A stretch of 64,000 nt of DNA, taken from the IMG/VR virus record IMGVR_UViG_3300045988_140747; one strand, 5' to 3'. The DNA is from a virus. The notes beneath the pieces were generated by a model. The model was not told where the DNA came from. It saw nothing but the letters and a program-made list of their open reading frames with translations, and did not search any database. Shown here piece by piece: positions 17,243 through 37,452 of this stretch (position 1 is the stretch's first letter; the number at the start of each line of letters is the position of its first letter). The position numbers and the translations under genes were made by a program.

Positions 17243-17271
17243 TGAAAATAAAAATGAAGGAAGGCCATTTT

Positions 17272-17946: not shown

Positions 17947-17972
17947 CCCAAAGCCGTGGAAACACGGCACAT

Positions 17973-18062: not shown

Positions 18063-18085
18063 TAAAAGCAATCTGGAGGTCGTTC

Positions 18086-18715: not shown

Positions 18716-19374
18716 AAGTTCTTGTTATCGCACCTCACCCTGATGACGAGATTCTCGGTGTTGGCGGAACGATAGCAAAAAGGGCTGCTGTCGGCGATGA
18801 AGTTACCGTGTGCATCTGTACAAAGGGCGTACACCCTATGTTCGATCAAAAGATTATTAAAGCTGGACGTGATGAAGCCAGAAAGGCTCACACATACCTT
18901 GGTGTCTCAGAAACCATATTTCTGGATCTTCCTGCTGCAGAGCTTGATAGTCTGCCTATGACTGATATCGTGGGAAGGCTCGAGAATGTGGTTTGCGAAA
19001 CACGTCCAGATGAGATTTTCATTCCTCATCATGGTGACATCCACAATGACCATAAGGCTATCTCTGCTGCCGCGATGGTTGCTTTGAGGCCGAAACGGTT
19101 CAAGAAGCCTGTTCGCATTCTCAGCTATGAGGTTCCGTCTGAGACAGGATGGGATACTCCTACTCCAGAAAATGCATTTAGCCCGAATGTATATGAGGAT
19201 ATCACCGACACAATCGGAAAGAAGCTCGACGCTGTTCTTATATACAGATCGCAAGCTGAACAGTGGCCGGGCGCTCGTTCCGCGGGCGCTGTTGAAGCTC
19301 TTGCAAAATATCGGGGATCTACCGTCTGCATCCCTTACGCCGAGGCATTTCAGCTTGTAAGGCAGACACTGTGA
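18712..19374 (+). CDS. PIG-L/LmbE-family de-N-acetylase
   Basis: VLVIAPHPDDEILGVGGT...HHGDIHNDH are the zinc-binding motifs of GlcNAc-type deacetylases. ATGA overlap with the upstream gene. Confidence 0.8.
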   Translation: MKVLVIAPHPDDEILGVGGTIAKRAAVGDEVTVCICTKGVHPMFDQKIIKAGRDEARKAHTYLGVSETIFLDLPAAELDSLPMTDIVGRLENVVCETRPDEIFIPHHGDIHNDHKAISAAAMVALRPKRFKKPVRILSYEVPSETGWDTPTPENAFSPNVYEDITDTIGKKLDAVLIYRSQAEQWPGARSAGAVEALAKYRGSTVCIPYAEAFQLVRQTL

Positions 19375-19401
19375 CCAACATCTAAAGAAGAGGGTTCGTC
19401 A

Positions 19402-20055
19402 ATGGAAAAACGAATTGAAGTTTGCAAGATGAGAGCTGGAGATATCAAAACCGGCTTCGGGAATCCCAGAAAGATCAGCAACAAAAAAATGGATGAGCTC
19501 GAGCAGAGCATGAGCACCTTCGGAGATTTCGGGATTTTCCTCATCGACGAAAAGAACAACGTCATCGGCGGAAACCAGCGGTTGAAAGTTGTCAAGAAGC
19601 TTTATGGCGAAGATGCCATGATTGATTGCAAACGGCTCATCGGATATTCTCAATCCGAGCTCAAGGCGATCAACATCAAGGACAACACACACTCTGGTGA
19701 ATGGGACCTTGACTTGTTGGCTGACTGGACTTCTGAACTCGTCATGGACTTCAGCGTTGAGGCCGAGGAGAAGAAGCAGATCGAAGAGCGCGAGATCCCG
19801 GAGATGGAGCTTATCCACTACGAAAAGTACGATTATGTCATGATCGTATGCAACAACGAGCTGGATTACAACAATCTGGTGAGAGCACTTGGCATCGAAG
19901 GCAAGAAAGTTCGGATTTCCAAACGCAAGATCAACGCGCGTGCGGTCTGGTATCACAAGATGAAGGCGAAGGTCATTCCTTACGATGAACTTCCTGAAGA
20001 ACTTCTTGATGATTCTGACATCAAGGCAAGGGATGGCGGTGGCGAAGATGAGTAA
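19402..20055 (+). CDS. ParB/Srx-fold N-terminal domain protein
   Basis: GFGNPRKIS...SMSTFGDFGIFLIDEKNNVIGGNQRL...NIKDNTHSGEWDLDLLADW is the pattern of ParB-like nuclease/NTP-binding domains, often fused to phage DNA methylases. No methylase domain here. Confidence 0.65.
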   Translation: MEKRIEVCKMRAGDIKTGFGNPRKISNKKMDELEQSMSTFGDFGIFLIDEKNNVIGGNQRLKVVKKLYGEDAMIDCKRLIGYSQSELKAINIKDNTHSGEWDLDLLADWTSELVMDFSVEAEEKKQIEEREIPEMELIHYEKYDYVMIVCNNELDYNNLVRALGIEGKKVRISKRKINARAVWYHKMKAKVIPYDELPEELLDDSDIKARDGGGEDE

Positions 20056-20671
20056 CAATACTCTCGTTATCCTTGGTGCCGGCCAGCAGGGAAGAAACTG
20101 CCATAGACTGGCTCCCATCAACGGTTATCAAACGGTTGCCTTCGTCGATGATTTCATCACTGACCCAGTGGAAGACATCCGGGTGTATAGCAAGATCGAA
20201 GATATTCCGGATTTCATGGATCATAAGTACATCGTTGCTGTTGGGGATCTTGCGGTCAGAAAAAAGTTCATTGAGCAGATCAATCTGCTTGGCCTTGAGT
20301 GCGCAAACCTGATTGATCCCACCGCTGATATCGAACCCGGAGCCAAGATTGGAACTGGCAACTACATCTACAAGTTCGCCAGCGTGTATGCTTCGGCCAC
20401 AATCGGAGACCACAACATTATCAATTGCAAAGCTGTACTTGCTACCGACAGCGTTATTGGCAACAACTGCAATATCTGCATGGGAAGCAACATCTGTGGC
20501 GCGGTTCATGTAGGAGACAATAGCTATATTGGGTACAACGCAACGGTCGTCAGCGGGAACAACGTGGGGGCGAACGCCACAGTGGAGGCTGGATCTGTGG
20601 TTATGGAGGATGTGCCGGACTGGCTCCGCGTTTCTGGTATTCCGGCTCGAGACGCCGAAGAACTGTGGTAA
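20048..20671 (+). CDS. NeuD/PglD-family acyltransferase, second paralogue
   Basis: ATG 20048 overlaps the upstream stop. Alignable over its full length with 18086-18715 (VILGAGQQGR, IGDHNIINCKAVLATD, VGDNSYIG). Confidence 0.8.
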   Translation: MSNNTLVILGAGQQGRNCHRLAPINGYQTVAFVDDFITDPVEDIRVYSKIEDIPDFMDHKYIVAVGDLAVRKKFIEQINLLGLECANLIDPTADIEPGAKIGTGNYIYKFASVYASATIGDHNIINCKAVLATDSVIGNNCNICMGSNICGAVHVGDNSYIGYNATVVSGNNVGANATVEAGSVVMEDVPDWLRVSGIPARDAEELW

Positions 20672-20686
20672 ACGTAGAGGTGTAAT

Positions 20687-21403
20687 ATGGAAAAGCCAGA
20701 TATTTTCGGAATCTACATTCCGAGCTATAAGAGATCTGATACGATTACCACTCATAAGCTTCTCGAATACTACAAGGTTGTTATTCGCCAGAGCGAATAT
20801 GAAGACTACCTCAAGACCATCCCTGCAGAAAACATCATTGCCGTTCAGGACGATCTTATCGATAGCGTTCCGAAGGTGTGGAACTGGATCATCGACAATG
20901 CAGAGGAGGACTACTTCTGCATTATCGGTGATGATGTTCCAAGGTTCTACTACCGGCTTGAGAAGAGCGAGGCCATCACAGATCCTGAGATTATCACTTC
21001 TGAGATAGAGCGAATCGGCCAGCTTATGATCGATCTCAATATCGGATGGGGATGTGATGATGCCACCAACGTGCCTTGGGGATACGATGCTGAGTTCACG
21101 TTCAAGGGGACTACCGGCGGAATCAACTGGATTAACAGGAAGAAGCTCAAGGGAAGGTTCAATGCGGAAATCGGATACTGCTGCGATACCGATGTCGTTA
21201 TGCAGGAACTTCTGGTAAACCGGATTATTCTCAAACCCAAGTATTTGTGTCCCGGCGGTGGAGCTGACAAAAACAAAGGCGGCAACTCAAAGAAGAGCCG
21301 AGAGAGTATGATTGCCAGCTTCGAACTTATGAAAACGAAGTGGGGCAAGTATTTCGACTACGACCTGAAGACCAACAAGATCTATGTGAGGGTTCCGCGA
21401 TGA
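20687..21403 (+). CDS. putative GT-A-like glycosyltransferase
   Basis: N-terminal IYIPSYKRSD strand-loop and FCIIGDDV (DxD-like). Resembles phage DNA/TET-associated or GT2-like glycosyltransferases. Assignment by motif only. Confidence 0.4.
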   Translation: MEKPDIFGIYIPSYKRSDTITTHKLLEYYKVVIRQSEYEDYLKTIPAENIIAVQDDLIDSVPKVWNWIIDNAEEDYFCIIGDDVPRFYYRLEKSEAITDPEIITSEIERIGQLMIDLNIGWGCDDATNVPWGYDAEFTFKGTTGGINWINRKKLKGRFNAEIGYCCDTDVVMQELLVNRIILKPKYLCPGGGADKNKGGNSKKSRESMIASFELMKTKWGKYFDYDLKTNKIYVRVPR

Positions 21404-22083
21404 CCGATGTAAGAGTGTTCTCAGGCCATCAGCCAAACTTCCTTCCATACATGGGCGTGTTCTACAAGATGTACCGTTCCAACGTGTTTGTCTTGGATGA
21501 CGATGTGCAGTATTCTAGGGATGGACTTCACAACGCCAACTTTATCAAAGTGAATGGGTCTAAGCACAGGATTACCGTGCCGGTCAAATACAACTTTGGA
21601 GATCCGATCAACAAGGTTGAGATATGCAACGACATGGATTGGGCTGGCAAGATGCTCAAGACTATGAAGTGCGCTTATGCAAAGGCTCCGCATTTTGAAG
21701 AAGGATATGGGCTCTTGGAAAGGCATTTTCAAAACATGCCAACCCGCTTGTCGGACTTGAACATTGGCCTCATCCGCGAAATCGCAGATAGATTCGGGAT
21801 GACGTGCAAAATTGTCGTTGCCAGCGAATCTGTTCCTACGGATCTCAAGAAGAACGAAAGAAACCTCTACCAATGCATCACCCTCGGGGGAAGTGAGTAC
21901 CTGTCAGGAGAGGGAGGAAGGGTATACAACGACGAAGAGCTGTTTGCTGGGCACGGGATCGACGTGAAGTACTCCGATTATCATCCACTCCATTACAGGC
22001 AAGTCGGTAGGGAGTTCATCGAGAACTTATCCGTTATTGACTACATTTTTAATGTTGGATTTGCGATTCCTGAAGAATGGTGA
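21400..22083 (+). CDS. WbqC-family protein
   Basis: ATG 21400 (ATGA overlap). SGHQPNFLPYMGVFYKM...VLDDDVQYSRDG..HNANFI...ITVPV...LSVIDYIFNVG matches the WbqC-like O-antigen-cluster family pattern. Confidence 0.7.
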   Translation: MTDVRVFSGHQPNFLPYMGVFYKMYRSNVFVLDDDVQYSRDGLHNANFIKVNGSKHRITVPVKYNFGDPINKVEICNDMDWAGKMLKTMKCAYAKAPHFEEGYGLLERHFQNMPTRLSDLNIGLIREIADRFGMTCKIVVASESVPTDLKKNERNLYQCITLGGSEYLSGEGGRVYNDEELFAGHGIDVKYSDYHPLHYRQVGREFIENLSVIDYIFNVGFAIPEEW

Positions 22084-24288: not shown

Positions 24289-25691
24289 ATGCCACAGATC
24301 CTGAAGCCGCAGGAAGGACCTCAGACACGGTTCATGTCTACCCCCGCGAGCATTTGTATCTATGGCGGCTAGGAGCAGCCGGCGGAGGGAAAAGCTTTGG
24401 ATTGCTCATGTCTGCCCTTCGGTACAAGAACGTGCCCGGGTTTGGCTGCACCATATTCCGAAAGAACTTCAACCAGATATTTGCACAGGGCGGTCTGTGG
24501 GATGAATCCATGCAGATCTACCAAGACGTCAAGGGAGCTTGTCCCAAGTTCGCTCGAGGGCAATGGTTGTTCTGCAATGACAAAGGTGAGGTTTTATCAA
24601 AGGTCACGTTTGCTCATATTGAGAAGGATGAGGACGTCCATAAATGGCAAGGCTCTCAGATCTGCGAATTGGGATTTGACGAGCTAACTCATTTTACCGA
24701 GAAAACGTTCTTCTATATGCTATCCCGTAACCGATCTGCCTGTGGTGTTGAGCCATTTGTCAGGGCTACATGCAACCCTGATGCGAATTCATGGGTGGCA
24801 AAGTTCATTGAGTGGTGGATCGATCAGGATACTGGATACCCAATCCCTGAACGGAGTGGGAAGATTCGATGGTTTATCCGCCGGGATGAAGTGCTCTACT
24901 GGGCTAATACCCGGCAAGAGCTCTGGAAAAGATTCAATCTCACTACAGAAGAGGAGAAAAGTGAGCCAAGGTCTGTCACGTTCATAATGTCTAAGTTGAG
25001 CGACAACAAGGAACTTATGAAGGTGAACCCGGGCTACCTTGCAAACCTAAAGGCGCTGTCTCAGATCGAGAGAGAGCGCCTTCTTTATGGAAACTGGAAG
25101 ATCAAGGCCGCTGCTGGTCTCTACTTCAAGAGATCACAGCTTGGAGAGATTCTCAATAGTGTCCCTGCGGATGTCATCCAGTGGGTAAGATGCTGGGACT
25201 TGGCTGCTACGGAAAAGGACGACAAGGGAGACCCGGCATATACTGCTGGCGTCCTTATGGGAAAGCGGAAGAATGGACGATATGTCATTGCCAACGTTGT
25301 CAACAAGCAGATGTCCGCATCTGATGTCCGAAAGACCATCAAGCTCACGGCACAGTCTGATAGAGCTGCCTATAAGCGAGTCCGAGTTCGATTGCCACAG
25401 GATCCCGGACAGGCCGGTAAGGAACAGGCGGAGTCCTACATAAAGTTCTTGGCCGGCTTTGATGTTACGACTGTGGCAGAAAGCGGAACCAAAGAGGCAA
25501 GAGCGGAGCCAATGGCTGCACAATGGCAGGCTGGAAACTTCGACATTGTATACGGCGAGTGGAATGAAGAGTACCTGCTTCAGCTTGAAAACTTCCCAGA
25601 TGGAAAGTTCAAGGATATGGTCGATGCTTCCGCAAATGCTTTTGCAGAGATCGAATCCAGATGCGCATTCAACCTCAGCAACCTGATTTGA
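24289..25691 (+). CDS. terL: terminase large subunit, reading frame interrupted near codon 27
   Basis: ATG 24289 (RBS GGAAGGGG) encodes MPQILKPQEGPQTRFMSTPASICIYGG, then TAG 24370. The -1 frame continues LGAAGGGKSFGLL (Walker A), FDELTHF and ATCNPD. The long frame has no ATG or RBS of its own. Confidence 0.75.
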
Positions 25692-25717
25692 TTACCATAC
25701 CGGAAGGAGATATAAGC

Positions 25718-27110
25718 GTGGATAAGATGACACAAGAGGATCGCATCAAGCACTATGCGCATCTGATTCAGCGTCAGACTGGCAAGGCTGTGCGACCGTA
25801 CCGTGCTGACGGATACGTCAACATGGTTAACCGGTATGGCACATCGAAAGATTCGTCCGAGCAGTACAACTTCGTACCGGATGCGCCGGTTGCTGACGAT
25901 GTGCTTGAAATGCACTATGAAAACAACGGCCTGTTTTCCAAAATCATCGATATGCCGGCAGAGGAAGCCATCAAGCACGGCTTTACCATCGAAGACGTAG
26001 AGGACGGAAAGCTGGCTGACTTCTACAGCGAAGCTCTCGACGAACTCAACTGGGAAGAGAACGCCATGACCGCCGTTAAGTGGGCAAGACTGTTCGGCGG
26101 CTCCATTGCCATTATGCTTGTGAACGATGGTCGTGGGCTCGAGGAACCTCTCGATTGGAAGAACATTCAATCCATTGACGATATCCGAGTGTACGACAGA
26201 TCGCTCATTAGCCCTGACTACAGTAGCGTGTTCAACTACGATCCGCAGGATCCATTCCGAGTTCGCGGCAGTCGGCTTGGTATGCCCGAATACTATGATG
26301 TCTATAGCAAGTATGGATCATTCCGAGTACACGACAGCAGATGCCTTGTTTTCCAAAACGGCGTCCTGCCTGAAAATGCAACTAACTCCATCTACCAGTT
26401 TTGGGGAATCCCGGAGTACATCAGGCTGAACAAGGCCATCCGGGATGCGGACATTGCACACCGCAGCGCACCCAAGTTGCTGGAACGGTCTGTGCAGCCC
26501 ATCTATAAGATGAAGGATCTCGCGGCTGAGTTGGCTACAGAACAGGGCGAAGACCGCATTCTCAAACGTCTGCAGGTTATCGACACTGCACGAGGAATCC
26601 TCAACAGCCTTGTCATCGATGCCGATGGCGAAGACTATGACTTCAAGACGTTCCAGTACAACGGTATCACTGACGTTATCAGTGCATCCTGCAATATGCT
26701 CGCTGCCCTGTCCAATATTCCACAGATCATTCTGTTTGGGCAGACCATCAGCGGAATGAGCAGCACTGATGACACCAGCATGGAGAACTACTACAACTAC
26801 GTTGAGCGCATTCAGAAAAGGATGCTGCGGAGTAATCTCCGATATCTACTGTCTGTTGTTTTTCAAGCCGGCCTTGCAACCGGAGAGGTTGATGAAGTCC
26901 CAAAGCTGAAGGTTCAGTTCAATCCTCTGTGGTCTGTCAGCGATTCCGACCAAGCAACTCTGGATCAGCAGAAGGCCCAGACCGAGCAGATCAAGGCGCA
27001 GACTGCCCAGATCTATGTCGGTATGGAAGCCATTGATCCCAGCGAGGTTCGTTCCAAGCTTGCAGATAGCGATGACTTTGATGTCGAGAATATGCTTGAT
27101 GAGTATACTG
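25718..27110 (+). other. portal domain (DUF1073-like)
   Basis: RADGYVNMVNRYGTSKDSSEQYNF...LEMHYENNGLFSKIIDMPAEEAIKHGF and the following ~400 aa fit the DUF1073 portal pattern. Position is directly after TerL. Confidence 0.75.
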
Positions 27111-30100
27111 AAGAGGAACTCGAAGCTGGAATGCCAAGCAATGATGAGAGCCAAGAGCAAACGCCTGATGATGGACAGCCTGCTACTCCTGATTCTCAAC
27201 CTACTGGAAATGATGAAAAAGCCGGACCTGGTCAGCTCCTGAACGAAAAGACTCTCTCTGCTGTTGGAAACAATGCAAAAGATCCTGCCACCATGGAGAC
27301 TAAGGTTAGCTCCGATCCTCATGAAAACAAGGAAGGCACTGAAGGTGATGCCCCTGCATCCGCCCCTGCTGCGACGAAAAAGCCTTCCGACATGGACCCT
27401 GAAGAAAAGGCCAAAGCTGCACAATCGCGCCAAAACAAGGCAAAAGACCGGGAGGACTCACTTCGTACCGATGACAACAATTCTCACTCCGAAGATCAAA
27501 AAGGCTCGGTGGGCGTTATTGTGGTCAATGGGGGCAGAGTCCTGAATGGTACTCGGCACAACGATTTTGGCTACGGCCTTGTCTGTGGCCCCGGCGGTCA
27601 CATTGAAGAAGGTGAAACTCCGGAACAGGCTGCATTCCGAGAGACCAAAGAAGAATTCGGTATTACGCCCAAAAGCCTTATGTGCCTTGGACAAGGGCCT
27701 AAAGAAAAAGATACCGGCCTGAAGCCGTACCTGTTCCTGTGCACCGAATACTACGGCACTCCGAACTGCGAAGATCTCGAGATGACCGGCGCCAAGTTCA
27801 GTACCATTGAGGAATTGAACGAAAAGGCCGAATCCTTGTTCGGCCCGTTCGCAGACGGCCTGAACATCCTGATGGACTGCCTTGAAACCGGCATCTTCTA
27901 TACAGACCCAGCGGAAGGCGTAACTGGCGAGAAACTGAATTCTCATCTGGAAAAGGCTATGAATGCCGATGGAGGTCAAGGATCTGGCAATTTTGGACAC
28001 GAAGGAAGGCCAGGAAAAGTAGGAGGAAGCGCCGAGTCGCACAACTTTGGAGGGCTCAAAAACAGCGAGCTTTCATCTAAGATGAATGGCGTGTTCGATG
28101 ATGCAAAGATAGGAACTCGCTTTTCCGTAAAGATGAACGGCGTTGCCGGAAAAGATGATTATGAAATCTATAAAGTTTCAGATGGATTCTACGTTCGGAG
28201 CAAAAAAGGCGGAAACGATATTGTCAAATCAGTTGACAAGCTCGTCGAGAATTGCGGTGTATACGTCACAAATCTGACCTCTGACAAGGTCATGTATAAG
28301 GAAGCCAACATTGAAGTTGGTGAACCCGAAACAGAAGAAGCACAAAGTTTTACTAGAGCATACGAATCTTGCAGAAAGGAAAGAGAGCGACTTGCATCTG
28401 GGAATTATAAAATCACTGAAGTTGATGATGCTACCGCAAAAAAGTATGCTGACACTTTGAACAAAGCAAGCAAGGCAAAAATCGCAAAACTTGCTATTGA
28501 TGACCCACAGTTCAAGGCTGTTGTTGATAACATTTCTGCGTATACACAGGGAGAATATGTATATCAGCGAAAAGCGACTGAAAAATTCATCAGCAACGGA
28601 TATGACCCATCTAACGATGCAATCCTCGGAGATCGACTTACCGATTCTTTGTATTTATGCAAAGACATGTACAAGGGACAAAATCTTTCCGTTTCCAGTG
28701 CAAGTGTAACGGAAGGCATGGCGAACTTGACAAAGGCTGTGAATTGCTCCGATCCGTTTGACGGAGAGCTGTACCGAGTTGCTCAGGACAGAAGCCTGAT
28801 GAAAACTGCAGACTCTGGAAACCAGGGAGTATACACTCCGCCAAAACCCGGAGAAACAATATCCATAGTTGCTCCTACTTCGTTCTCAAAGGACAAAGCG
28901 GCTATTGATAAGATTGCCAAAGATAAGTCCGGTGATATCATCTATTACACTGTTCAACCGGGTGCTCATGCCGTAGATGTATCAAAGCTGTCACCGTATA
29001 AGCAAGCTGAACTCCTTACCTGCGGAGAATATGAGGTTGTCAGTGTTGATTCCAAGCCTCAGAGAGTTGTTATGACTCAGATCGATCGTTTCACAAGTGA
29101 AACAATCGATTCGCTGAAGGCCAACAGAGGGGCAACAGTTGACGACGGTTTTGTTAAATTTCCAATCCTTGAAACTCATGTGACTCTTCGCCAGAAAGAA
29201 CCTATTCACATGGATTCTTGCGATGATAGCATCCACAGATACAGACCCGACGATTTTTCCGAACGGATGGTCTATGATGACGAGATTGATCTCGATGGTG
29301 GCCCAGGGTCTGGGAACTATGGGCACGAGGGCGTTCCGGGGCAAGTGGGCGGAAGCGCCCCTAGCACAAGCGGTCCGATTTCCAAAAGTAGCTTTCAGAA
29401 GGGCTCTGGTCACTTTGAAGTAACTGGTGACGTGAAAGATATGTATCTCACAAAGCCGGCAAGAACCAGAATTGAAGGGGCTATTAAAACGGTGAAAACC
29501 GCTAATGACCTCAAGAAATATCTTGAAAATCAAGGAATCAAGCTTGAAACGTCTTATGAACCACTCAAGAAAGCGATGGATAGAGAGATCCCGTCCATCA
29601 AGGAGCAGGCTGATTATGTGATTGCCGCTATTGAGCAGTACAAGGATCTCGGTGGGCTTAAAGCGCTTAAAGCGGTTCACATCTATGACCATGATATTGA
29701 TGCACAGGCGCAGTACAGCTATCGCGCAAAAGGGGAAGGTGATGTTCCAGACGAGGGACATTTGTATATCAGCTACATGGCTAATGGAGAGCAAATTATG
29801 CATGAGTTTGCTCACGCCTATGCTGACTCCACAAAGCCTGATGGAATGGATGTTGTCGAATGGTCAGCGAAGCTCAACCAAGAAGCAGGCCTTTCGAAAA
29901 ACGTAAAATCATACTTCGGCGCGGACAGCGATGCTAAAGAAGCTGAGCGTTTTGCCAATGCGATTGGGTACGCAATTGCGGATGGAGATGGACCGGATGG
30001 CCGACTTGCATTTGCTGCAAATGTTGCGAATATCGTAAGAAATTCCAATGGATCGTCCGCAGGAATGTCCGGCGGAAACCTTGCATTTAGAAGCATGATT

Positions 30101-31897
30101 CCGAAAGACAGCTACTTCAACTCTCCATCCTACAAGAAGGCTGTTGAAGCCTACCGCGGAGCCATCAGAAAGCATGACGATGCATGGAAGAAATATAGCG
30201 ACCTCAAGGAAGATCTCAAAGCAGAGTCCGCTCCGAAGCCTGAATCTGAATGGGATGATAACGACATCTTCGAAGATCTCATTGGCCATCGTCCCATGAC
30301 CTACACAGAAAAAGGCAAGAAGATCAAGTCTGAGATGGACAAAGCCTTCAAGGATTCACAGGAATATGACCATGAGCAGACCGAGACTGGCGACAAGCTT
30401 CGCGAGATCAAGAAAAAAGAGCATGACAAGCAGGTGAAGGGCATCCATTTCCAACCGCCTGCTGATGCCTCCTCCGATGATTATGAGGGCTTTACCACTA
30501 AGACCACCGGAACGTCCGCCTATGATGACTACATCAACGGAGAAAGGAACGGAGGCCGAATTGCAGAGATGTCCCCGGCGGAATATCTTCAAAGATGCGC
30601 CTATCAGGTCTTTGAAGATGCTACCATTGAGTCCACTCTGGCTGCTATCGATGAGTCCAACGTTAAGAAGTATGCCGATATGATGAAGAATGGCACAAAG
30701 TTTGACATGCCGTATCTCAATTTCATGTCTGGTCAGCAGGAAGGACGGCATCGAGCCGCTGCTGCCATGCAAGCTGGTATCGATAAGATCCCTGTGCTTG
30801 TGGTCGGAGAAAGGTTTGCCAAGTATGACGGAGGAAAAGGCTCTGGCAACTGGGGCCATGAAGGCCGAAAAGGGAAGCTCGGTGGATCGGCCCCCGGCGG
30901 AGGCGTGCACAACCGGATTTCCGAAGAGGGCGGATCCTACACCTCATTCTCAAAGAAGCAGAAGAAACTTGCCACAACGCACTTTGCCGGCAAGGGGGAA
31001 TTTCACAATCTCCCGGACAAGACTAAGATTGTTGCCGATCTTGTGTTTGGACCGTACTCTATGGTCTATAACGCCAAGCATGGCATGTTCATCGGCGAAG
31101 ACGGTGCCGAAATGAACCCGGATGATGTGACAGACGCTTGCGACAAAGACACTCCTGTTCGAGTGTTCATTCCGAATGAGGCGAGCACGAACTACAACAA
31201 GCTCAAGCAGTCCTTTGATGTTTCCCCGTCCAGAATGGCTGAAGCAAAAGCCTATTCACAGCCAAAGCAAGCCGACAAAGACCTCCGAAAGAAAACCGGA
31301 GAGGTGTGGAAAACGCTTACTGATGGTCAGAAAAAGTCACTTTATGATTATACCGGCGGCTTTTTTATGGACATCAACCACTCCCTGAGAAGTGGTCATG
31401 GAACTGTGCAGAACCAGTCCAAGGCCTCTGACATCACGACCGCCATAGCTAAGAGCAAAACTCAAGAGGATATGTGGCTGTATCGAGGAGTTGGCTTGGA
31501 GGCTGTTCCTAAGATGTTTGGTATTGACTGGGGAAAAATACAGAAGAATGACATTGGTTCTATTGTTGGAATGTCCGGCTCTGACGACGGCTTTATGTCG
31601 TGCGGTACAACTGCTGGCACTGGATATGGAGACGTAACCGATGTCAACATGAAGATTTTCGTTCCGAAGGGGTCTGAGGCTCTATACGCAGAGCCGTTCT
31701 CAAAGTATGGAAGCAACCCGGATGCCAAGAACTGGAACGGCGAAAGCGATCAGACCTATTTTTCCTCCGAAATGGAGACTATCTTGCAAAGAGGGTCTCA
31801 TTTCCAATGCACAAAAGCCTACTACGATGAGGACAAAAAGAAATACAGTATCGAAGTGGCTGTCACCGGACAAGAATACAAGGAGCTCAATTGGTGA
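25718..31897 (+). CDS. portal protein fused to a ~1,500-aa multi-domain (polyvalent) effector extension
   Basis: GTG 25718, 8 nt after GGAAGGAG (or ATG 25727). One uninterrupted frame of about 2,060 codons. N-terminal DUF1073-type portal, then NUDIX, ART-like, HExxH, ParB-like and ART domains separated by a repeated Gly-rich motif. Confidence 0.85.
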   Translation: MDKMTQEDRIKHYAHLIQRQTGKAVRPYRADGYVNMVNRYGTSKDSSEQYNFVPDAPVADDVLEMHYENNGLFSKIIDMPAEEAIKHGFTIEDVEDGKLADFYSEALDELNWEENAMTAVKWARLFGGSIAIMLVNDGRGLEEPLDWKNIQSIDDIRVYDRSLISPDYSSVFNYDPQDPFRVRGSRLGMPEYYDVYSKYGSFRVHDSRCLVFQNGVLPENATNSIYQFWGIPEYIRLNKAIRDADIAHRSAPKLLERSVQPIYKMKDLAAELATEQGEDRILKRLQVIDTARGILNSLVIDADGEDYDFKTFQYNGITDVISASCNMLAALSNIPQIILFGQTISGMSSTDDTSMENYYNYVERIQKRMLRSNLRYLLSVVFQAGLATGEVDEVPKLKVQFNPLWSVSDSDQATLDQQKAQTEQIKAQTAQIYVGMEAIDPSEVRSKLADSDDFDVENMLDEYTEEELEAGMPSNDESQEQTPDDGQPATPDSQPTGNDEKAGPGQLLNEKTLSAVGNNAKDPATMETKVSSDPHENKEGTEGDAPASAPAATKKPSDMDPEEKAKAAQSRQNKAKDREDSLRTDDNNSHSEDQKGSVGVIVVNGGRVLNGTRHNDFGYGLVCGPGGHIEEGETPEQAAFRETKEEFGITPKSLMCLGQGPKEKDTGLKPYLFLCTEYYGTPNCEDLEMTGAKFSTIEELNEKAESLFGPFADGLNILMDCLETGIFYTDPAEGVTGEKLNSHLEKAMNADGGQGSGNFGHEGRPGKVGGSAESHNFGGLKNSELSSKMNGVFDDAKIGTRFSVKMNGVAGKDDYEIYKVSDGFYVRSKKGGNDIVKSVDKLVENCGVYVTNLTSDKVMYKEANIEVGEPETEEAQSFTRAYESCRKERERLASGNYKITEVDDATAKKYADTLNKASKAKIAKLAIDDPQFKAVVDNISAYTQGEYVYQRKATEKFISNGYDPSNDAILGDRLTDSLYLCKDMYKGQNLSVSSASVTEGMANLTKAVNCSDPFDGELYRVAQDRSLMKTADSGNQGVYTPPKPGETISIVAPTSFSKDKAAIDKIAKDKSGDIIYYTVQPGAHAVDVSKLSPYKQAELLTCGEYEVVSVDSKPQRVVMTQIDRFTSETIDSLKANRGATVDDGFVKFPILETHVTLRQKEPIHMDSCDDSIHRYRPDDFSERMVYDDEIDLDGGPGSGNYGHEGVPGQVGGSAPSTSGPISKSSFQKGSGHFEVTGDVKDMYLTKPARTRIEGAIKTVKTANDLKKYLENQGIKLETSYEPLKKAMDREIPSIKEQADYVIAAIEQYKDLGGLKALKAVHIYDHDIDAQAQYSYRAKGEGDVPDEGHLYISYMANGEQIMHEFAHAYADSTKPDGMDVVEWSAKLNQEAGLSKNVKSYFGADSDAKEAERFANAIGYAIADGDGPDGRLAFAANVANIVRNSNGSSAGMSGGNLAFRSMIPKDSYFNSPSYKKAVEAYRGAIRKHDDAWKKYSDLKEDLKAESAPKPESEWDDNDIFEDLIGHRPMTYTEKGKKIKSEMDKAFKDSQEYDHEQTETGDKLREIKKKEHDKQVKGIHFQPPADASSDDYEGFTTKTTGTSAYDDYINGERNGGRIAEMSPAEYLQRCAYQVFEDATIESTLAAIDESNVKKYADMMKNGTKFDMPYLNFMSGQQEGRHRAAAAMQAGIDKIPVLVVGERFAKYDGGKGSGNWGHEGRKGKLGGSAPGGGVHNRISEEGGSYTSFSKKQKKLATTHFAGKGEFHNLPDKTKIVADLVFGPYSMVYNAKHGMFIGEDGAEMNPDDVTDACDKDTPVRVFIPNEASTNYNKLKQSFDVSPSRMAEAKAYSQPKQADKDLRKKTGEVWKTLTDGQKKSLYDYTGGFFMDINHSLRSGHGTVQNQSKASDITTAIAKSKTQEDMWLYRGVGLEAVPKMFGIDWGKIQKNDIGSIVGMSGSDDGFMSCGTTAGTGYGDVTDVNMKIFVPKGSEALYAEPFSKYGSNPDAKNWNGESDQTYFSSEMETILQRGSHFQCTKAYYDEDKKKYSIEVAVTGQEYKELNW
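27503..27900 (+). other. NUDIX hydrolase domain
   Basis: Nudix box GPGGHIEEGETPEQAAFRETKEEFGI (GX5EX7REUXEEXGU). Confidence 0.8.
27968..28033 (+). repeat. protein-level linker motif copy 1: DGGQGSGNFGHEGRPGKVGGSA
   Basis: Read directly from the translation. Codons differ from the other copies. Confidence 0.9.
28520..29120 (+). other. possible ADP-ribosyltransferase-like domain (R-S-QxE)
   Basis: YTQGEYVYQRK..., ELYRV (Arg, nt 28775), PTSFS (nt 28877), KQAELL (QxE, nt 29003), spaced about 35 and 42 aa apart as in C3-like ARTs. Motif-level only. Confidence 0.35.
29294..29359 (+). repeat. linker motif copy 2: DGGPGSGNYGHEGVPGQVGGSA
   Basis: Read directly from the translation. Confidence 0.9.
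29400..30060 (+). other. HExxH (zincin-like) domain
   Basis: IMHEFAHAY at nt 29798-29821 within a helical region. No third ligand assigned. Confidence 0.4.
30550..30812 (+). other. ParB/Srx-like domain
   Basis: MSPAEYL...YADMMKNGTKFDMPYLNFMSGQQEGRHRAAAAMQAGIDKIPVLVV (GRHR plus IPV pattern). Confidence 0.6.
30827..30892 (+). repeat. linker motif copy 3: DGGKGSGNWGHEGRKGKLGGSA
   Basis: Read directly from the translation. Confidence 0.9.
31300..31894 (+). other. C-terminal ADP-ribosyltransferase domain (R-S-ExE type)
   Basis: LYDYTGGFFMDINHSLR, WLYRG (Arg, nt 31484), GFMSCGT (STS-like), SEMETILQRG (ExE, nt 31769-31777). Confidence 0.75.
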
Positions 31898-31995: not shown

Positions 31996-32223
31996 ATGGC
32001 GAAATGGGACAATGAAGAACTGTCGTGGGTACGGCCTGACAAGAATAAAATCCAATGTTCAAAGTGCATGCTGCGAGAGAAGGACCGACTGGACGGAGAA
32101 ATCGACGGGGCCACACTTGGTGTGTGTGAAGCCTTCCAATTTAAGCCGACGGAGATTCTTTTCAACGGCGCTGAGTGTCCGTATTTCATTGACGAGAACA
32201 CGCCAGACGACGAAGAAGAGTGA
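31996..32223 (+). CDS. small Cys-containing acidic protein
   Basis: 75 aa, RBS TAGGAGGG. CSKC...C...C. Acidic tail DDEEE. Confidence 0.6.
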   Translation: MAKWDNEELSWVRPDKNKIQCSKCMLREKDRLDGEIDGATLGVCEAFQFKPTEILFNGAECPYFIDENTPDDEEE

Positions 32224-32238
32224 CTTGAAAGGGAACAG

Positions 32239-33057
32239 GTGGCAGGATTGAAGAACACCAATCGAATCATCGGAGGAATCGTTGGCGATATCGTCGGATC
32301 TGTATATGAGTTCGACAATATCAAGTCCAAGGACTTCGTTCTGTTTGGGGATCATCACGGTCAGAAATGCTTCGCAACCGATGACAGCATAATGACTCTG
32401 GCGGTTTGCGATGCGTTCACCAAGAGTGCTCCGTACTACGAATTCCTTTACGAAAACCTCATGAAGTCCATGCAGGAAATCGGAAGACCGTATCCGGATT
32501 GCGGATACGGAGGAAGATTTTATAGCTGGATGTACTCTGATAACCCACAGCCGTATAACAGCTTTGGGAATGGCGCTGCGATGCGCGTAAGTGCTGCAGC
32601 ATACGCTGCGAATACGCTCTCTGAAGCTCTCGACTTCGCAAGAATCACTGCAGAAGTCACCCATAATCACCCTGAAGGCATCAAGGGCGCACAGGCTACT
32701 GCTGGATGCATTTACCTTGCGCTTCATGGATATGACTTCCGAAAGATCCTGCGATTTGCCGATCACTACTATGACCTAGACTTCACCCTTCACGGTATCC
32801 GTGACAGCTATCGGTTCAATGAGTCCTGCCAGGAAACAGTTCCACAGGCTATTGTCGCTTTCCTTGAATCCACTGATTTTGAGGATTCAATCCGCAACGC
32901 GATTTCCATTGGCGGGGACAGCGACACACTGGCCTGTATTACTGGATCTATTGCCGGAGCCTACTATGGTGTTCCCGTAAACATCGCAGATAAGGCCATC
33001 GGATATTTGGATCCTCGCCTCCGTGAAATCTACGATCGGTTTGTTGAAGAGTTCTGA
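32239..33057 (+). CDS. ADP-ribosylglycohydrolase (ARH/DraG family)
   Basis: GDIVGSVYEF, ATDDSIMT, NSFGNGAAMR, THNHPEGIKGA and IGGDSDTLACITGSIAGAYYG are the ARH metal-binding motifs. GTG start. Confidence 0.85.
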   Translation: MAGLKNTNRIIGGIVGDIVGSVYEFDNIKSKDFVLFGDHHGQKCFATDDSIMTLAVCDAFTKSAPYYEFLYENLMKSMQEIGRPYPDCGYGGRFYSWMYSDNPQPYNSFGNGAAMRVSAAAYAANTLSEALDFARITAEVTHNHPEGIKGAQATAGCIYLALHGYDFRKILRFADHYYDLDFTLHGIRDSYRFNESCQETVPQAIVAFLESTDFEDSIRNAISIGGDSDTLACITGSIAGAYYGVPVNIADKAIGYLDPRLREIYDRFVEEF

Positions 33058-33448: not shown

Positions 33449-34384
33449 GTGAACAATAAAATTCACCAAGAAGCTGTCAAACAGGCCACACAGGCCAAAT
33501 TCCGCGGCAAAAAGACCATCAAGTGCAAAACCAAACCATTATACCCGGAATCTGCCGAACGAGAGTATGCCCGAGTTACAAACGGCTACATGAAAATCCT
33601 CGACGATACTGTCAAGAAGCACATGCCAGCTATCATGAAAGCATACAAGGCAGATCTCGATGCAAGCATCCGAGAAGATGACATCCATGATGTTTTCGAC
33701 AAAACCCGCCGGGAATTCCAAAGAATGGCTGAAGAGCTTGAACGGAAACTTGCAAAGTATGGGCTGCAGAACCTCGTTGGCAAAGTCGCTCGCGTCGCAA
33801 GAAAGAGCTCATATAGGCAGTGGAAACGGGCCTGCAAGCAAACTCTCGGCATCGACCTTATGGACGATTACTACAACGGAGACTTCTATCGGCAAGCTGT
33901 TCAGAAATGGGTTGACGACAATGTCTTGAAGATTAAGAGCCTTCCGAATGACTCTCTCGGGTCAATGCAGCAGATTGTCTATAAGGGTTTTCAAAGTGGT
34001 GCAAGCGTCAGAGACATCTCGAAGGAGATTCAGGACGAGTACCAAACATCCAAGCATCAGGCACAAATGCTTGCTAGGGATCAGCTGTCCACCCTGAATT
34101 CTCAAATCACCCGACTTCAGCAAGAGGATGCCGGCTGTAAGCGATATAGGTGGTCAACGTCCAAAGACTCCCGAGTCCGGGACTGCCACAAGTCCTTCGA
34201 AGGAAAAGTGTTCAGCTGGGACGACCCACCTGAAGGATGGTATAAGACCAAGAACGGAATCAAGTACACTGGACGAAGATGCCACCCCGGGGAGGACTAC
34301 ATGTGTAGATGCGTAGCGATCCCCGTTTTCGACTGGGAAACCATAGACGTCCCTATGCAGACTGATGGTGAAAAGGAGAGCTGA
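33449..34384 (+). CDS. MuF/SPP1 gp7-like minor head (head morphogenesis) protein
   Basis: Central helical region, then C-terminal RYRWSTSKDSRVRDCHKSFEGKVFSWDDPP...RCHPGEDYMCRCVAIPV, typical of the Phage_Mu_F domain. GTG start after GGGAAAGGGGA. Confidence 0.8.
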   Translation: MNNKIHQEAVKQATQAKFRGKKTIKCKTKPLYPESAEREYARVTNGYMKILDDTVKKHMPAIMKAYKADLDASIREDDIHDVFDKTRREFQRMAEELERKLAKYGLQNLVGKVARVARKSSYRQWKRACKQTLGIDLMDDYYNGDFYRQAVQKWVDDNVLKIKSLPNDSLGSMQQIVYKGFQSGASVRDISKEIQDEYQTSKHQAQMLARDQLSTLNSQITRLQQEDAGCKRYRWSTSKDSRVRDCHKSFEGKVFSWDDPPEGWYKTKNGIKYTGRRCHPGEDYMCRCVAIPVFDWETIDVPMQTDGEKES

Positions 34385-34666: not shown

Positions 34667-35566
34667 ATGAAAAACACAATACAAGATATTCGAGAGAGAC
34701 AGATGCTTCGAAGGAAAGCGATGGACAGCCGAAAGCTTGTTATTTTTCGAAAAGACGGTTTGCCGGTTGTTGTTAGCGAGGATGGAGGCCCGGGGTCCGG
34801 TAATTTCGGACATGGAGGGCGTCCTGGAAAGGTTGGCGGTTCATCTGGCGGAGAAGGCTCTAAAAGCGCATCTGCTCCCAGCAGTAAAGCACCAAAAGCC
34901 AAGACTTACAACAATGAGATATCAAAAGCGTATAAGTCGAAGAACTACGCAGATGTTGGCAAAGCAATTAGAAAATGCGTTACGGATGCACCTATCGGCT
35001 CGAAATTCACCTCAAACGGAAACTCCTACACCAAAACAGGAGACGATACATTCGAGTATACAATCGCTTCGTTTCCGAATAAAAAGTTTCCTGCCAATAC
35101 GAACATGGTTGTAAATAACGCCGACTTGTTCAAATCCGAAAACGCTCTGAAGTTTGAAGAAAGTGAAGAAAAAGCATCGAAAGCCAGTGAAGAACAGGCA
35201 TCCGCTCCGCAGAAAAAAACTTCAGATAAAGAAACTTCGTCCCGAAAGCCGACCTTTAGCGGAAGCAAAAAGACCGAAGGAATTCGTTCTTTTGGTGGCA
35301 TCAAGTGGAACGAAAGAAATGAAATTCTCGAGAAAGCCCCAGTTGGAGCTAAAATCGAAGGAATTGTCAGCAATTCCGGGCGCCCGGTTGTCATTGAAAA
35401 GACGAGCGGTATTGTTTCCAAAACGTCTTATTTCGGAGACATCTTCAAAGAGAAGGAGGATTACTGGGAAGTCAACGGAGAAAGGGCTAACGGAAGCTCG
35501 CAGATTGCTGAGATTATTGGTCAGACTCTGAAGGGCACGAGCAAGTACTACAAGCTGAAGGAATAA
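34667..35566 (+). CDS. hypothetical virion-cargo-like protein carrying the GSGN linker motif near its N-terminus
   Basis: 299 aa. Residues 39-62 are DGGPGSGNFGHGGRPGKVGGSS. The rest is Lys/Ser-rich and unrecognised. Confidence 0.65.
   Translation: MKNTIQDIRERQMLRRKAMDSRKLVIFRKDGLPVVVSEDGGPGSGNFGHGGRPGKVGGSSGGEGSKSASAPSSKAPKAKTYNNEISKAYKSKNYADVGKAIRKCVTDAPIGSKFTSNGNSYTKTGDDTFEYTIASFPNKKFPANTNMVVNNADLFKSENALKFEESEEKASKASEEQASAPQKKTSDKETSSRKPTFSGSKKTEGIRSFGGIKWNERNEILEKAPVGAKIEGIVSNSGRPVVIEKTSGIVSKTSYFGDIFKEKEDYWEVNGERANGSSQIAEIIGQTLKGTSKYYKLKE
34781..34853 (+). repeat. linker motif copy 4: DGGPGSGNFGHGGRPGKVGGSS
   Basis: Read directly from the translation of 34667-35566. Confidence 0.9.
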
Positions 35567-35602: not shown

Positions 35603-35896
35603 GTGTTGTTTATGCAAAATTCTGCGGCTGTAGGTAGTATCTGCGCACAACTTATCAAGTCGTGCGAGAAGGTTCAAACGATCACATCGGCTATGGATGC
35701 TTTTGAGCAGACTAACGAGAAGCTCGTTGAATCTTATGGGAACATTCGGTTTGACGAACTCGAGCACATCCAGATTCTCACGCTGATGCTCACGGAGCTT
35801 GTCTCCGTTGAGAACGAGGAGAACATGGATGGAGAGGGGAGCGTATTTGCCCCCGGAGATCTCAACGACGTAAAGAAATGTGAGGGCGAGGAATGA
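35603..35896 (+). CDS. hypothetical protein
   Basis: 97 aa. Precedes the scaffold gene with an ATGA overlap. Confidence 0.5.
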   Translation: MLFMQNSAAVGSICAQLIKSCEKVQTITSAMDAFEQTNEKLVESYGNIRFDELEHIQILTLMLTELVSVENEENMDGEGSVFAPGDLNDVKKCEGEE

Positions 35897-37452
35897 CAAG
35901 AAATACCGAAAATGCACCGCCCAAGCTTTCTAGGGTCTACCGGCTCGATAGCTCTCCTGTGAATTCCACCTATTTCACTGAGGAAGGTTATCTGATCGAC
36001 CACCCGATTCTGACAAGCATCGGAATCTTCGAATACACGAACCCTGACGGAACCACTCGCAGGGAACTGCGAATTCCTGAAGAGGTTTTTAAGCCTGAAA
36101 GCCTCAAGTCCTATAAGGGTAAGCCTATCATCGTGACTCATGATGCCGGGCTTATCACCAAGGATAACGTTGGCGAAGAGGCAATCGGAACAATCCTGTC
36201 TGAAGGATACCAGGACAAGGATGACGTCCGAGCCGAAATCATCATCCATGATACGGATGAGATGAAATCTGTTGGGTTGAAGGAGCTGTCGCTCGGCTAT
36301 AACCTCACGCTCGATGAAACGCCGGGCGTGTGGGAAGGCAAGCCGTATGACGCTATTCAGCGAGATATTACCATCAATCACCTTGCGCTGGTTCTTCAAG
36401 CGAGAGCTGGCGACCAAGCACGGCTTAACATCGATAGCCGTGACCGCACTACGAAAGGAGTAAAAACCACCATGAGCAAGAAGATCAAAAAGTTCGGCTC
36501 TCGCGCCGACGGTGTTCTGAGCCCCGAAGAGCTGCAGAAGGCAATCGCCGACTACAAGAAGCGCCGCGCAGAGCGCATCGAGGGTCAGAAGGATGCAGAT
36601 GACGTTGCTCCTGCAGAAGCAGAGAACAAAAAGCCTGCTGCTGTCGAGACCGACGGAGATGAGACTGCTCCAACTGGCGCTGACGACCAGAAGAACGCAG
36701 TTCAGGCTGTCAAGGACCGCCGCGATCGTCGCGATGAGGAAGGCGACCCGAAAGATAAGGATGCCGCAATGGGCGTTATTGCCCAGCAGGATAGCGACAT
36801 GGATATCCTGTTTGACATCATCGACACCCTGCTGGCCGAGCGCGACATGAAGACTTCCGCCACCGATGGAGAGGAATGCGATCCCGAGGATCCCAACACC
36901 GACGCCGATGACGAGGAGAACAAGCCCGCATCTGCACTGGCTGCGGTCAACGGCGATGAGGACGAGGACGAGGATGAGGATCTCAACTCCGACGAGGATG
37001 ATGAAGAGGAAGTCAATGCCGATGAGGACGACGATGAGGTGCCTTCCACGAACGAGGGAGATGTCGGCAGCGCTGTCGTCAAGGAACCCACTTCCAATAT
37101 GGACTCTATCGATGCCATCGTTCGCCAGCGCGTCCAGCTCGGCATCGCAGGATCCAAGCTCGGCATCAAGGGCCTTGAGAACATGAAGCTGTCAAAGGCC
37201 AAGAAGACCGTCATTCGCGCAGTCAACCCCGGCATTCGTCTGGATGGCAAGAGCGATGCCTACATCAACGGCGCGTTCAGCTGCGCAATGGCTGCAATCA
37301 ATGCTCCTGCAAAGAAGGGCATTGCCTATCAGAAGAAGCAGATGTTCAACGGCGATTCCCGCGACTTTGCTTCTCGCACCACCAAGATGACTTCTGCTGA
37401 TGCAGCACGCGCTCGCATGATCGAGCGCCGTATGAACAAGGAGGTAAAGTAA
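35893..37452 (+). CDS. DUF2213-like head scaffolding / maturation protein
   Basis: N-domain YFTEEGYLIDHPILTSIGIFEY...ELRIPEEVF...KGKPIIVTHD...LSLGY...INHLALV (DUF2213 pattern), then a long acidic low-complexity region (DEDEDEDED...). Confidence 0.65.
   Translation: MTRNTENAPPKLSRVYRLDSSPVNSTYFTEEGYLIDHPILTSIGIFEYTNPDGTTRRELRIPEEVFKPESLKSYKGKPIIVTHDAGLITKDNVGEEAIGTILSEGYQDKDDVRAEIIIHDTDEMKSVGLKELSLGYNLTLDETPGVWEGKPYDAIQRDITINHLALVLQARAGDQARLNIDSRDRTTKGVKTTMSKKIKKFGSRADGVLSPEELQKAIADYKKRRAERIEGQKDADDVAPAEAENKKPAAVETDGDETAPTGADDQKNAVQAVKDRRDRRDEEGDPKDKDAAMGVIAQQDSDMDILFDIIDTLLAERDMKTSATDGEECDPEDPNTDADDEENKPASALAAVNGDEDEDEDEDLNSDEDDEEEVNADEDDDEVPSTNEGDVGSAVVKEPTSNMDSIDAIVRQRVQLGIAGSKLGIKGLENMKLSKAKKTVIRAVNPGIRLDGKSDAYINGAFSCAMAAINAPAKKGIAYQKKQMFNGDSRDFASRTTKMTSADAARARMIERRMNKEVK

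Follow-up and report, generated by a model that had tools for sequence, protein, structure and literature searches.

Why would the portal gene of a phage run on, with no stop codon, into a long series of enzyme domains, and what divides that series into parts? Both questions are raised by an open reading frame (ORF) in the IMG/VR virus record IMGVR_UViG_3300045988_140747, of which the whole 64,000 nucleotide stretch analysed here is referred to as the window. The ORF (25718..31897, + strand) encodes 2,059 aa plus a stop, and its cargo part is punctuated by a short glycine-rich peptide, here called the GSGN delimiter. We consider it rather probable that the product is a portal protein extended at its C-terminus by a chain of effector cassettes, that is, a portal-anchored polyvalent protein, the cargo of which is predicted to be injected. 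How the first minutes of an infection go is settled by the proteins that enter the cell together with the DNA, and cargo of this kind in gut phages is almost uncharted.

Architecture of the portal-cargo protein

In the ORF listing of the window, the + strand is a single open frame without interruption across 25661..31897. The GTG start at 25718 lies 7 nt downstream of a Shine-Dalgarno-like site, GGAAGGAG, and agrees with the starts that gene callers assign in close relatives; the stop codon is at 31895-31897. A full-length homologue, P0001 (representative proteins are numbered P and related loci L), is 92% identical, and more than 120 related clusters were found. From N- to C-terminus the product comprises a PF06381 portal, an acidic linker, a NUDIX domain, a C3-like ADP-ribosyltransferase (ART) with R-S-QxE residues, an HExxH domain, a ParB/Srx-like domain and a Vip2/Alt-like ART with R-S-ExE residues, with five predicted catalytic domains after the portal. 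The initial annotation had proposed one uninterrupted frame of about 2,060 codons, which is what we found. All of its domain calls (DUF1073-type portal, NUDIX with a Nudix box, a 'possible ART', HExxH, ParB/Srx-like and a C-terminal R-S-ExE ART) also found support, three through Pfam and three through the predicted fold together with conserved catalytic residues, as did the acidic linker that it had placed after the portal.

The portal domain (aa 1-480; 25718..27157) matches Phage_portal_3 (PF06381, formerly DUF1073) at aa 65-423 with E 3.5e-72 and 243.5 bits (cutoff 33.8), covering profile positions 5-355 of 357, and matches phrog_15528 with E 9e-182. The linker (aa 451-595; 27068..27502) is acidic and of low complexity, as judged by composition, and has no family match; its first 50 residues, aa 451-500, include 18 D/E and zero K/R. 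The NUDIX hydrolase domain (aa 596-745; 27503..27952) matches PF00293 at aa 596-701 (E 5.8e-14; 52.7 bits, cutoff 21.1), and the Nudix box, GX5EX7REUXEEXGU, is intact (G626 HIEEG E632 TPEQAAF RETKEEFGI). NUDIX is found in nearly all portal homologues and joins the portal without a delimiter throughout the clade. A survey of portal-fusion architectures in related phages, which the initial annotation had suggested, was made by protein search and recovered more than 120 clusters (from ENA, Logan, JGI and NCBI assemblies) that share this portal-NUDIX N-terminus and measure 1,130-2,090 aa overall. Their tails vary and include ART (PF03496, PF01129), Zeta toxin (PF06414), Ntox50 (PF15542) and glutamine deamidase (PF15644) domains. 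Portal and NUDIX are the constant core in a clade of gut-Clostridia phages related to Brigitvirus, and the part after NUDIX consists of variable cassettes.

The closest cultured relative is the Faecalibacterium phage FP_Brigit (NC_047909), a prophage, the portal protein of which (gp30) has 52% identity to ours over aa 9-749. It shares the portal-NUDIX core, and the head genes of the two phages are in the same order. However, gp30 is only 828 aa long and has one small C-terminal domain after an 'ADHPRDENGQF' junction in place of the GSGN delimiter, and neither an ART nor an ADP-ribosylglycohydrolase (ARH) was found within the stretch of FP_Brigit examined. FP_Brigit was found only at the protein level; when the 13-kb head region was used to query 50,697 phage records in a nucleotide search, no match was returned. 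More distant relatives lie within Lachnospiraceae and Clostridia genomes, including Parablautia intestinalis.

The C-terminal cassette, M2 (aa 1730-2059; 30905..31894), matches ADPrib_exo_Tox (PF03496) at aa 1859-2048 (E 1.2e-20), with catalytic residues R1923, S1961 and E2018-x-E2020, and its best PDB sequence match is Lmo0066 (8za7_B, E 4e-6), followed by Vip2. The first cassette, M0 (aa 776-1192; 28043..29293), and the block formed by M6 and M10 (aa 1220-1703) have no sequence match in Pfam or PDB, and a PDB profile search from one cassette alignment gave noise only. An AlphaFold model of M0, built from an alignment of homologues, has a mean predicted local distance difference test score (pLDDT) of 80, with a core above 90, and consists of a beta-rich N-terminal subdomain and a C3-like ART. 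The top Foldseek matches to this model in PDB were all C3/Vis/Certhrax/CDTa/Vip2 ARTs (best E 1.2e-7, probability 1.0), and R1020, T1054-S1055 and Q1096-x-E1098 are invariant in an alignment of 12 homologues. On the model, M0 is a second ART, predicted to be of the QxE type. The motifs of the R-S-E clade are present on an ART fold in both cassettes, as seen from a profile in M2 and from a fold match in M0.

Between the two ARTs lie M6 (aa 1220-1442; 29375..30043), a probable zincin-like metallopeptidase with HEFAH at 1362-1366, and M10 (aa 1443-1703; 30044..30826), made up of long helices and a probable ParB/Srx-like domain with a GRHR box at 1676-1679. Both assignments come from fold matches of modest significance. 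M6 matches a phage 'Metalloprotease' model in BFVD (E 4.6e-3, probability 1.0), and its HExxH is conserved in all aligned homologues; the Pfam match to Peptidase_M78 is marginal, reaching only E 0.012 in 2 of 14 members. M10 matches a phage 'ParB/Sulfiredoxin' model in BFVD (best E 1.1e-3, probability 1.0, target-normalised TM-score 0.57), with many further ParB matches, and its GRHR box is conserved in all homologues. The joint model of M6 and M10 has a pLDDT of 76 and a predicted TM-score (pTM) of 0.48. When it was compared with PDB using Foldseek there was no significant match, the best being Osa (4o7k, ParB/Srx fold; E 0.28). The ParB-like region had no match in profile and Pfam searches, and an hhalign comparison with the ParB protein of FP_Brigit aligned the GRHR boxes without reaching significance (E 0.12).

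The GSGN delimiter and cassette exchange

Three copies of the delimiter lie in the portal-cargo ORF: DGGQGSGNFGHEGRPGKVGGSA at aa 751-772 (27968..28033), DGGPGSGNYGHEGVPGQVGGSA at aa 1193-1214 (29294..29359) and DGGKGSGNWGHEGRKGKLGGSA at aa 1704-1725 (30827..30892). A fourth copy lies at 34781-34846 in a separate + strand ORF (34667..35566). All four copies in the window are in one reading frame, with none in the other five. The claim in the initial annotation that a repeated motif partitions the cargo holds for the boundaries at aa 751, 1193 and 1704 and fails between the HExxH and ParB-like parts, which form one 483-aa block with no internal copy. In relatives, M6 and M10 are two motif-bounded cassettes (M6 in P0037-P0048, M10 in P0002 and P0006), and therefore one delimiter has been lost in this protein.

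The consensus is a glycine-rich 22-residue sequence, DGGPGSGN[FHWY]GHxG[VR]PGx[VI]GGSAP. Across 164 unique instances nine residues are invariant, and conservation falls sharply at both edges. All four instances that were modelled are disordered in AlphaFold (pLDDT <50), including the first copy in the portal-cargo ORF and the second, which is disordered in both models that contain it; such predicted disorder fits an exposed short linear motif. The DNA of the four window copies is only 61-73% identical, and in pairwise comparisons synonymous differences affect 10-14 of the 22 codons, against only 3-6 with an amino acid change. Because the copies differ mostly at synonymous sites, selection acts on the delimiter as a peptide, and the copies are old and kept by protein function. 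This synonymous divergence led us to reject recent duplication or gene conversion as the source of the identity between motifs. A collagen-like triple helix, suggested by five G-X-Y triplets, is unlikely, as the stretch is not long enough and such a helix would leave the invariant Asn, His and Asp unexplained. No Pfam family covers the delimiter, and a literature search with motif strings returned no paper.

When 1.84 billion representative proteins were searched exhaustively with a profile of the motif, 5,458 delimiter-bearing representatives were recovered at E 1e-3, 966 at 1e-10 and 131 at 1e-30, with up to 10 copies per protein. In the best 149 motif proteins the first copy starts at a median position of residue 32 and lies within the first 60 residues in 102; copies follow one another at intervals of approximately 200 aa and are never C-terminal, and portal fusions account for only two of the proteins. 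A Pfam scan of 36 motif-rich proteins found ART-PolyVal (PF18760) in eight, ADPrib_exo_Tox in five, 2H phosphoesterase in four, and Zeta toxin and MuF in three each, together with PI3/PI4-kinase-like, Fic, HD, Acb1, GNAT, PRTase, poly(A) polymerase-like and XkdF-type protease domains. Because the same domain repertoire (ART-PolyVal, 2H, Zeta toxin, MuF, Fic, HD, Acb1) characterizes the polyvalent proteins of PMC5512222, the motif-rich proteins can be equated with them. A separate homologue search with the motif profile returned only tiny predicted proteins of 41-76 aa (P0138-P0164) that contain little beyond the delimiter; some occur on long contigs (P0141 is on 18 contigs), and they may be gene-calling fragments or genuine mini-ORFs.

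When 121 proteins were cut at the motif, the 233 resulting segments fell into 44 clusters that recur in varied orders and combinations. After the portal-NUDIX core, the protein studied here has M0 - (M6+M10) - ART, P0002 has M0 - M10 - ART, P0003 has (M6+M10) - ART and P0005 has M0 - M1. P0001 is 99-100% identical to our protein in the portal and M0 and only 65% identical in the ART cassette, and P0003, which lacks M0, is 97-100% identical in the shared parts (ART 100%). Thus, by sequence comparison, near-identical phages differ by whole cassettes, exactly at the delimiter. Across 37 loci, every portal ORF of at least 926 aa has at least one delimiter, and most of the ORFs that consist of portal and NUDIX only (655-755 aa) have none.

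The same cassettes also occur without a portal. In P0121-P0134 they are 97-100% identical, and a leader of 20-25 aa or an 88-aa domain is followed directly by the motif. In L002 and L003 a short portal gene (portal-NUDIX-motif-small ART) is followed directly by a separate 891-aa gene that consists of a 24-aa leader, the motif, M6M10, the motif and the ART, in a block 97-100% identical to the ORF in the window; in L004 and L006 the ART is a gene of its own, of 397-405 aa, with a leader and the motif. The window itself includes such a stand-alone cargo gene, the 299-aa ORF at 34667..35566, in which a 38-aa leader and the fourth delimiter precede a module of unassigned fold that is fused to the portal ORF in L008, L010 and L015. 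Three locations of cargo genes were seen, namely in fusion with the portal, in the interval from portal to MuF, and in that from MuF to the DUF2213 gene. Since close relatives carry identical cassettes as genes of their own, the portal fusion is optional: on these comparisons the portal is one carrier among others, and the constant element is the motif.

Some details of individual loci bear on how carrier and cargo are joined. The separate cargo gene of L002 starts with TTG and overlaps the portal stop by 20 nt in another frame (10001-10020), an arrangement best put down to translational coupling of the usual kind. We considered whether a programmed frameshift might join the two in L002 and set this aside, because a start codon of its own is present in the downstream ORF and because the portal gene of L004 stops cleanly before translation restarts. 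In L038 (6001-9597) and L039 (6001-10431) the portal-cargo proteins end 0 or 9 residues past a delimiter and the next substantial gene is MuF; such terminal delimiters are either scars of deleted cassettes or instances of a motif with its own function. L018 (6816-8660), L024 (11186-12823) and L026 (4109-4963) have a second NUDIX-delimiter-cargo gene after MuF, besides the portal-linked NUDIX.

The GSGN delimiter is not the sole element found at these junctions. In P0012, P0027, P0031, P0035 and P0036 the end of NUDIX ('HLEKAMNAD') is followed by DDDWITVNGTHVMIDENG in place of the GSGN motif, and the same alternative element separates cassettes in P0049, P0058, P0109 and L033 (9953-12733). Its pattern is [DE]xxW[IV]T[IV]NGxH[IV]x[IV][DN]xxGxAxxGG, or WITVNGxH in short form, and Asn-x-x-His is invariant in both delimiter types. 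A third, 'HPRD'-type delimiter, searched for as a regular expression, was found in FP_Brigit only.

A candidate antidote, the proposed delivery of the cargo and competing readings

Two genes downstream of the portal-cargo ORF lies a gene for an ARH (32239..33057, +; PF03747 E 5.7e-38), with PDB matches to ARH3, DraG, Tri1 and Lmo0067 (8za7_A, E 4e-13). The 34 informative loci divide into 12 with both an ExE ART and an ARH, one with the ART alone, none with the ARH alone and 21 with neither (Fisher p = 2.4e-8, with related loci treated as independent). In most loci that have both, one gene separates the ART from the ARH downstream of it, and the pairing is kept in each arrangement of the ART: in fusion with the portal, within a separate polyprotein, as a single gene and in a position after MuF. 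The QxE ART (M0) occurs without an ARH in L007. Because the ARH is present in 12 of the 13 loci with an ExE ART and in none of the other 21, we read it as a probable antidote. PDB entry 8za7 is a deposited ART-ARH toxin-immunity pair, and since the M2 ART and the ARH match its partner chains, the ARH of the window is probably the cognate antidote of the C-terminal ExE ART and a candidate immunity protein. The phage pair thus resembles Lmo0066/Lmo0067 of Listeria (8za7) and, through the further match of the ARH to Tri1 and DraG, Tre1/Tri1 of Serratia (6drh). It differs in that those proteins are secreted bacterial effectors, Tre1 being a type VI secretion effector, and not virion cargo. Between ART and ARH lies a conserved 75-aa ORF (31996..32223, +) of unassigned function that had no family match; genes of 73-78 aa occupy this position in L002, L004 and L006, and the product could be a second immunity or adaptor protein. 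The initial annotation mentioned neither the ARH, nor the fourth copy of the motif within another gene of the head module, nor the optional nature of the portal fusion, nor the motif as the constant element.

The ORF stands among the genes that build the head. It is preceded by the large terminase gene (24354..25691, +; Terminase_6N and Terminase_6C, phrog_979 E 3e-146), where the packaging and head module starts, and is followed by a gene for a MuF/SPP1 gp7-like minor head protein (33449..34384, +; PF04233 E 1.4e-21, TIGR01641), which the initial annotation had placed correctly at 33449. Further downstream are a DUF2213/Pa193_gp24-type head scaffold or protease (35893..37452, +; PF09979 E 5e-30, phrog_530), a candidate partner of the delimiter, and capsid genes. 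The order of large terminase, portal-cargo ORF, MuF, head scaffold/protease and capsid is the same in at least 30 related loci. The suggestion in the initial annotation that the ORF encodes a polyvalent protein gains support, at the sequence level, from the multi-domain chain, the location among packaging and virion genes and the shared domain repertoire.

The C-terminus of a portal protein faces the capsid interior. We infer that the cargo is packaged, cleaved and ejected, and that it reaches targets in the cell. The 12 portal subunits built into the procapsid would bring the cargo inside, amounting to approximately 174 kDa per chain and approximately 2 MDa in total, which by a rough estimate would occupy a few per cent of the capsid volume for a genome of approximately 64 kb. 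The delimiters would act as processing or docking signals that free or organize the individual enzymes. Two ARTs (of the QxE and ExE specificity classes), a NUDIX hydrolase, a ParB/Srx-like nuclease or NTPase and a zincin-like peptidase would then exit with the DNA and, as infection begins, act on targets linked to NAD+ or ADP-ribose. The ARH, the gene of which lies two downstream, would reverse or block the ExE ART in the cell that produces the phage or in a lysogen.

The strict grammar, in which a leader is followed by repeated units of delimiter and module, is reminiscent of an N-terminal propeptide or of a targeting signal such as the T4 capsid-targeting sequence. In our view the delimiter most likely serves in processing and/or docking. 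Self-catalysed release at the delimiter is possible by analogy, as Asn-x-x-His calls to mind the NPTH loop at which the type III secretion proteins FlhB and YscU cleave themselves. It is less likely than not that the GSGN delimiter and WITVNGxH together form a portable packaging-and-release signal, by which any enzyme that has the signal in front of it, behind a portal, a MuF protein or a short leader, would be directed to the capsid interior and set free afterwards. If this were true, thousands of phage lineages would share a plug-and-play cassette system for virion-delivered effectors; in a sharper version of this reading, the release is self-catalysed. The half delimiter, DDGSGNFGHEGVP, found in the linker near aa 354 of the DUF2213 head protein of L024 (12837-14414) may be a self-processing or pseudo-substrate site.

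Several points weigh against the explanation of the ORF product as a portal-anchored polyvalent protein with injected cargo. The cargo is tethered to the portal and needs release, and therefore injection requires a cut; a chain that stays tethered to the portal cannot leave the capsid, and no protease is established. The DUF2213 protein belongs to phrog_530, which carries the label 'head maturation protease', but its counterpart Pa193 gp24 was a putative scaffold in a cryo-EM study (PMC11456595). The HExxH cassette is missing from most family members, and its assignment and that of the ParB-like domain rest on fold matches of modest significance. The motif is not strictly required at each junction, as M6 and M10 are joined without it and some proteins end in a bare delimiter, and FP_Brigit, the closest cultured phage, is without the GSGN motif. 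The co-occurrence statistics for ART and ARH count related loci as independent.

Among the alternatives, a polymorphic toxin for inter-bacterial competition survives best, though we consider it unlikely. The portal would be the trafficking domain, the tails would be toxins directed at rivals, and the ARH would be an immunity protein for lysogens or kin. A variable tail behind a constant N-terminus, exchange at a conserved junction, tails with the classic toxin domains Zeta toxin, Ntox50 and glutamine deamidase, and a tightly linked immunity-like gene are all as expected of such a toxin. The closest solved homologues are a toxin-immunity pair, FP_Brigit is a prophage and relatives reside inside Lachnospiraceae and Clostridia genomes. 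However, NUDIX, ParB-like, 2H, Acb1 and HD domains resemble takeover or anti-defence enzymes more than killing toxins. Up to ten cassettes would also be atypical, as polymorphic toxins vary one C-terminal tip. A recognizable partner exists for the ExE ART only, the QxE ART in L007 being without one, and no integrase was seen in the window. This explanation and that of an injected polyvalent protein are not mutually exclusive and can both hold.

A second alternative concerns the delimiter alone, which might be a mere flexible spacer and a shared sequence for the recombinational swapping of cassettes, with no biochemical role. The predicted disorder of all four modelled instances, the coincidence of the delimiter with the breakpoints between mosaic relatives, and its ability to be lost (at the M6-M10 junction) or to dangle at a C-terminus could all be explained in this way. 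Yet the D, S, N and H residues and the nine glycines would not stay invariant across 164 instances in a spacer, and DNA that is 61-73% identical, with near-saturated synonymous change, is a poor substrate for homologous recombination. The unrelated WITVNGxH motif takes exactly the same junction, and the polarity is strict, with a leader and then repeated motif-module units and the first copy near residue 32. A spacer without further function therefore seems rather improbable.

It is very unlikely that the cargo stays attached to the portal and acts inside the particle or in assembly, for instance with the ParB-like domain holding the DNA end or with phage components being modified. In favour of this, no protease is proven and NUDIX joins the portal without a delimiter across the clade, but the same cassettes occur as free-standing genes without a portal, NAD+-dependent ARTs would have no supply of substrate in the capsid, and the linked ARH implies an ART that is active in the cytoplasm. 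That the long ORF is an artefact, in which mis-assembly or a lost stop codon joined the portal gene to downstream genes, is hardly credible: equivalent cassettes are indeed a separate downstream gene in some close relatives, but P0001, with the same architecture over its full length, stands for 67 member sequences, dozens more portal-cargo fusions come from independent assemblies, the junctions are in frame at a conserved motif and not at gene ends, and we exclude an assembly artefact because the more than 120 clusters that share the portal-NUDIX core come from independent gut metagenomes.

Known systems and other genes of the window

In its sequence features, the ORF product is a member of the PF06381 portal family that fits the published definition of polyvalent proteins and has hallmarks of polymorphic toxins. 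Polyvalent proteins (Iyer et al. 2017, PMC5512222; 2022, PMC9503650) likewise have many effector domains in one chain encoded among late or virion genes, and their injection with the DNA has been predicted. Both have ART and Nudix domains and, on the probable assignments made here, a zincin-like peptidase ('MPTase') and a ParB-like domain; the chain falls within the published range of 2-15 effector domains, and the motif-rich relatives carry ART-PolyVal. Nudix and ART fusions to portal or MuF proteins were noted explicitly (PMC9503650), and portal or MuF fusions of Nudix, ART, 2H and PBECR domains were read as head-packaged injected effectors (PMC5512222, PMC9503650). The two differ in that the MPTase was proposed there as a processing device, whereas most members of the phage family described here are without it, and in that the cassettes here obey a strict 'prefix' grammar, can be split off into genes of their own and include a linked ARH. 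Term searches of the text of PMC5512222 found no description of a conserved inter-domain delimiter. The fusion of portal, Nudix and ART has thus been published already. As far as we found, what is new is the delimiter (or both delimiters), the grammar that it gives to the cassettes of thousands of proteins, and the interchangeability of fused and free-standing cargo.

MuF polymorphic toxins (Jamet et al. 2017, PMC5576092), which include the MuF-ART of Enterococcus EFV, also have a head protein as carrier, a variable C-terminal toxin that is often an ART, Firmicutes hosts and immunity genes downstream. In contrast, the carrier here is the portal, present at 12 copies per virion, and not MuF (one to two in SPP1, PMC5576092); several cassettes take the place of one tip; and a separate MuF gene without a toxin is also present. 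As far as term searches of its text reached, PMC5576092 holds no description of a delimiter-like element.

Three further systems offer partial analogies. Alt of phage T4 is an ART that is packaged in the head and injected, and its short N-terminal signal is removed by the prohead protease. Alt and the T4 internal proteins thus share with the cargo described here a head-packaged, injected ART and a short signal before the mature protein; here, packaging and injection are predicted. However, the T4 capsid-targeting sequence comprises approximately 10 residues ending in LxE, is unrelated in sequence and occurs once per protein, and the T4 cargo is not fused to the portal. Short conserved junctions at which variable toxin modules swap are found in CdiA (VENN), PT-TG and others, and MARTX toxins are strings of effectors that are freed by autoprocessing between modules. 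The sequences are unrelated, and in contrast to these systems the phage delimiter is repeated before every module.

The locus provides a readable grammar for cargo, namely a carrier or leader followed by repeated delimiter-enzyme units. If the delimiter marks capsid cargo, it would be a sequence tag for anti-defence or host-takeover enzymes in metagenomes, many of them without a known fold, and it could serve for loading chosen proteins into phage heads. The ART and ARH are candidates for biochemistry as an effector and its antidote from phages that are abundant in the human gut.

Elsewhere in the window, a run of genes upstream of the packaging genes (17026-22083, +) encodes a ThyX-like protein (PF02511), two PglD_N/hexapeptide acyltransferases, a PIG-L deacetylase and WbqC, with in addition a weak match to a TET-associated glycosyltransferase. 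This run looks like a cluster for the hypermodification of DNA bases, and it is kept at the same place in L002, L006, L007 and L039. A radical-SAM/4Fe-4S protein is encoded at 53306-54700 (+), an unusual location among baseplate and tail-fibre genes. The 971-aa ORF at 58254-61169 (+), in a stretch of high GC content (0.57) and strong AT skew (0.27), had no Pfam match and only a weak match to a PHROG without assigned function; its product may be a tail fibre or a receptor-binding protein.

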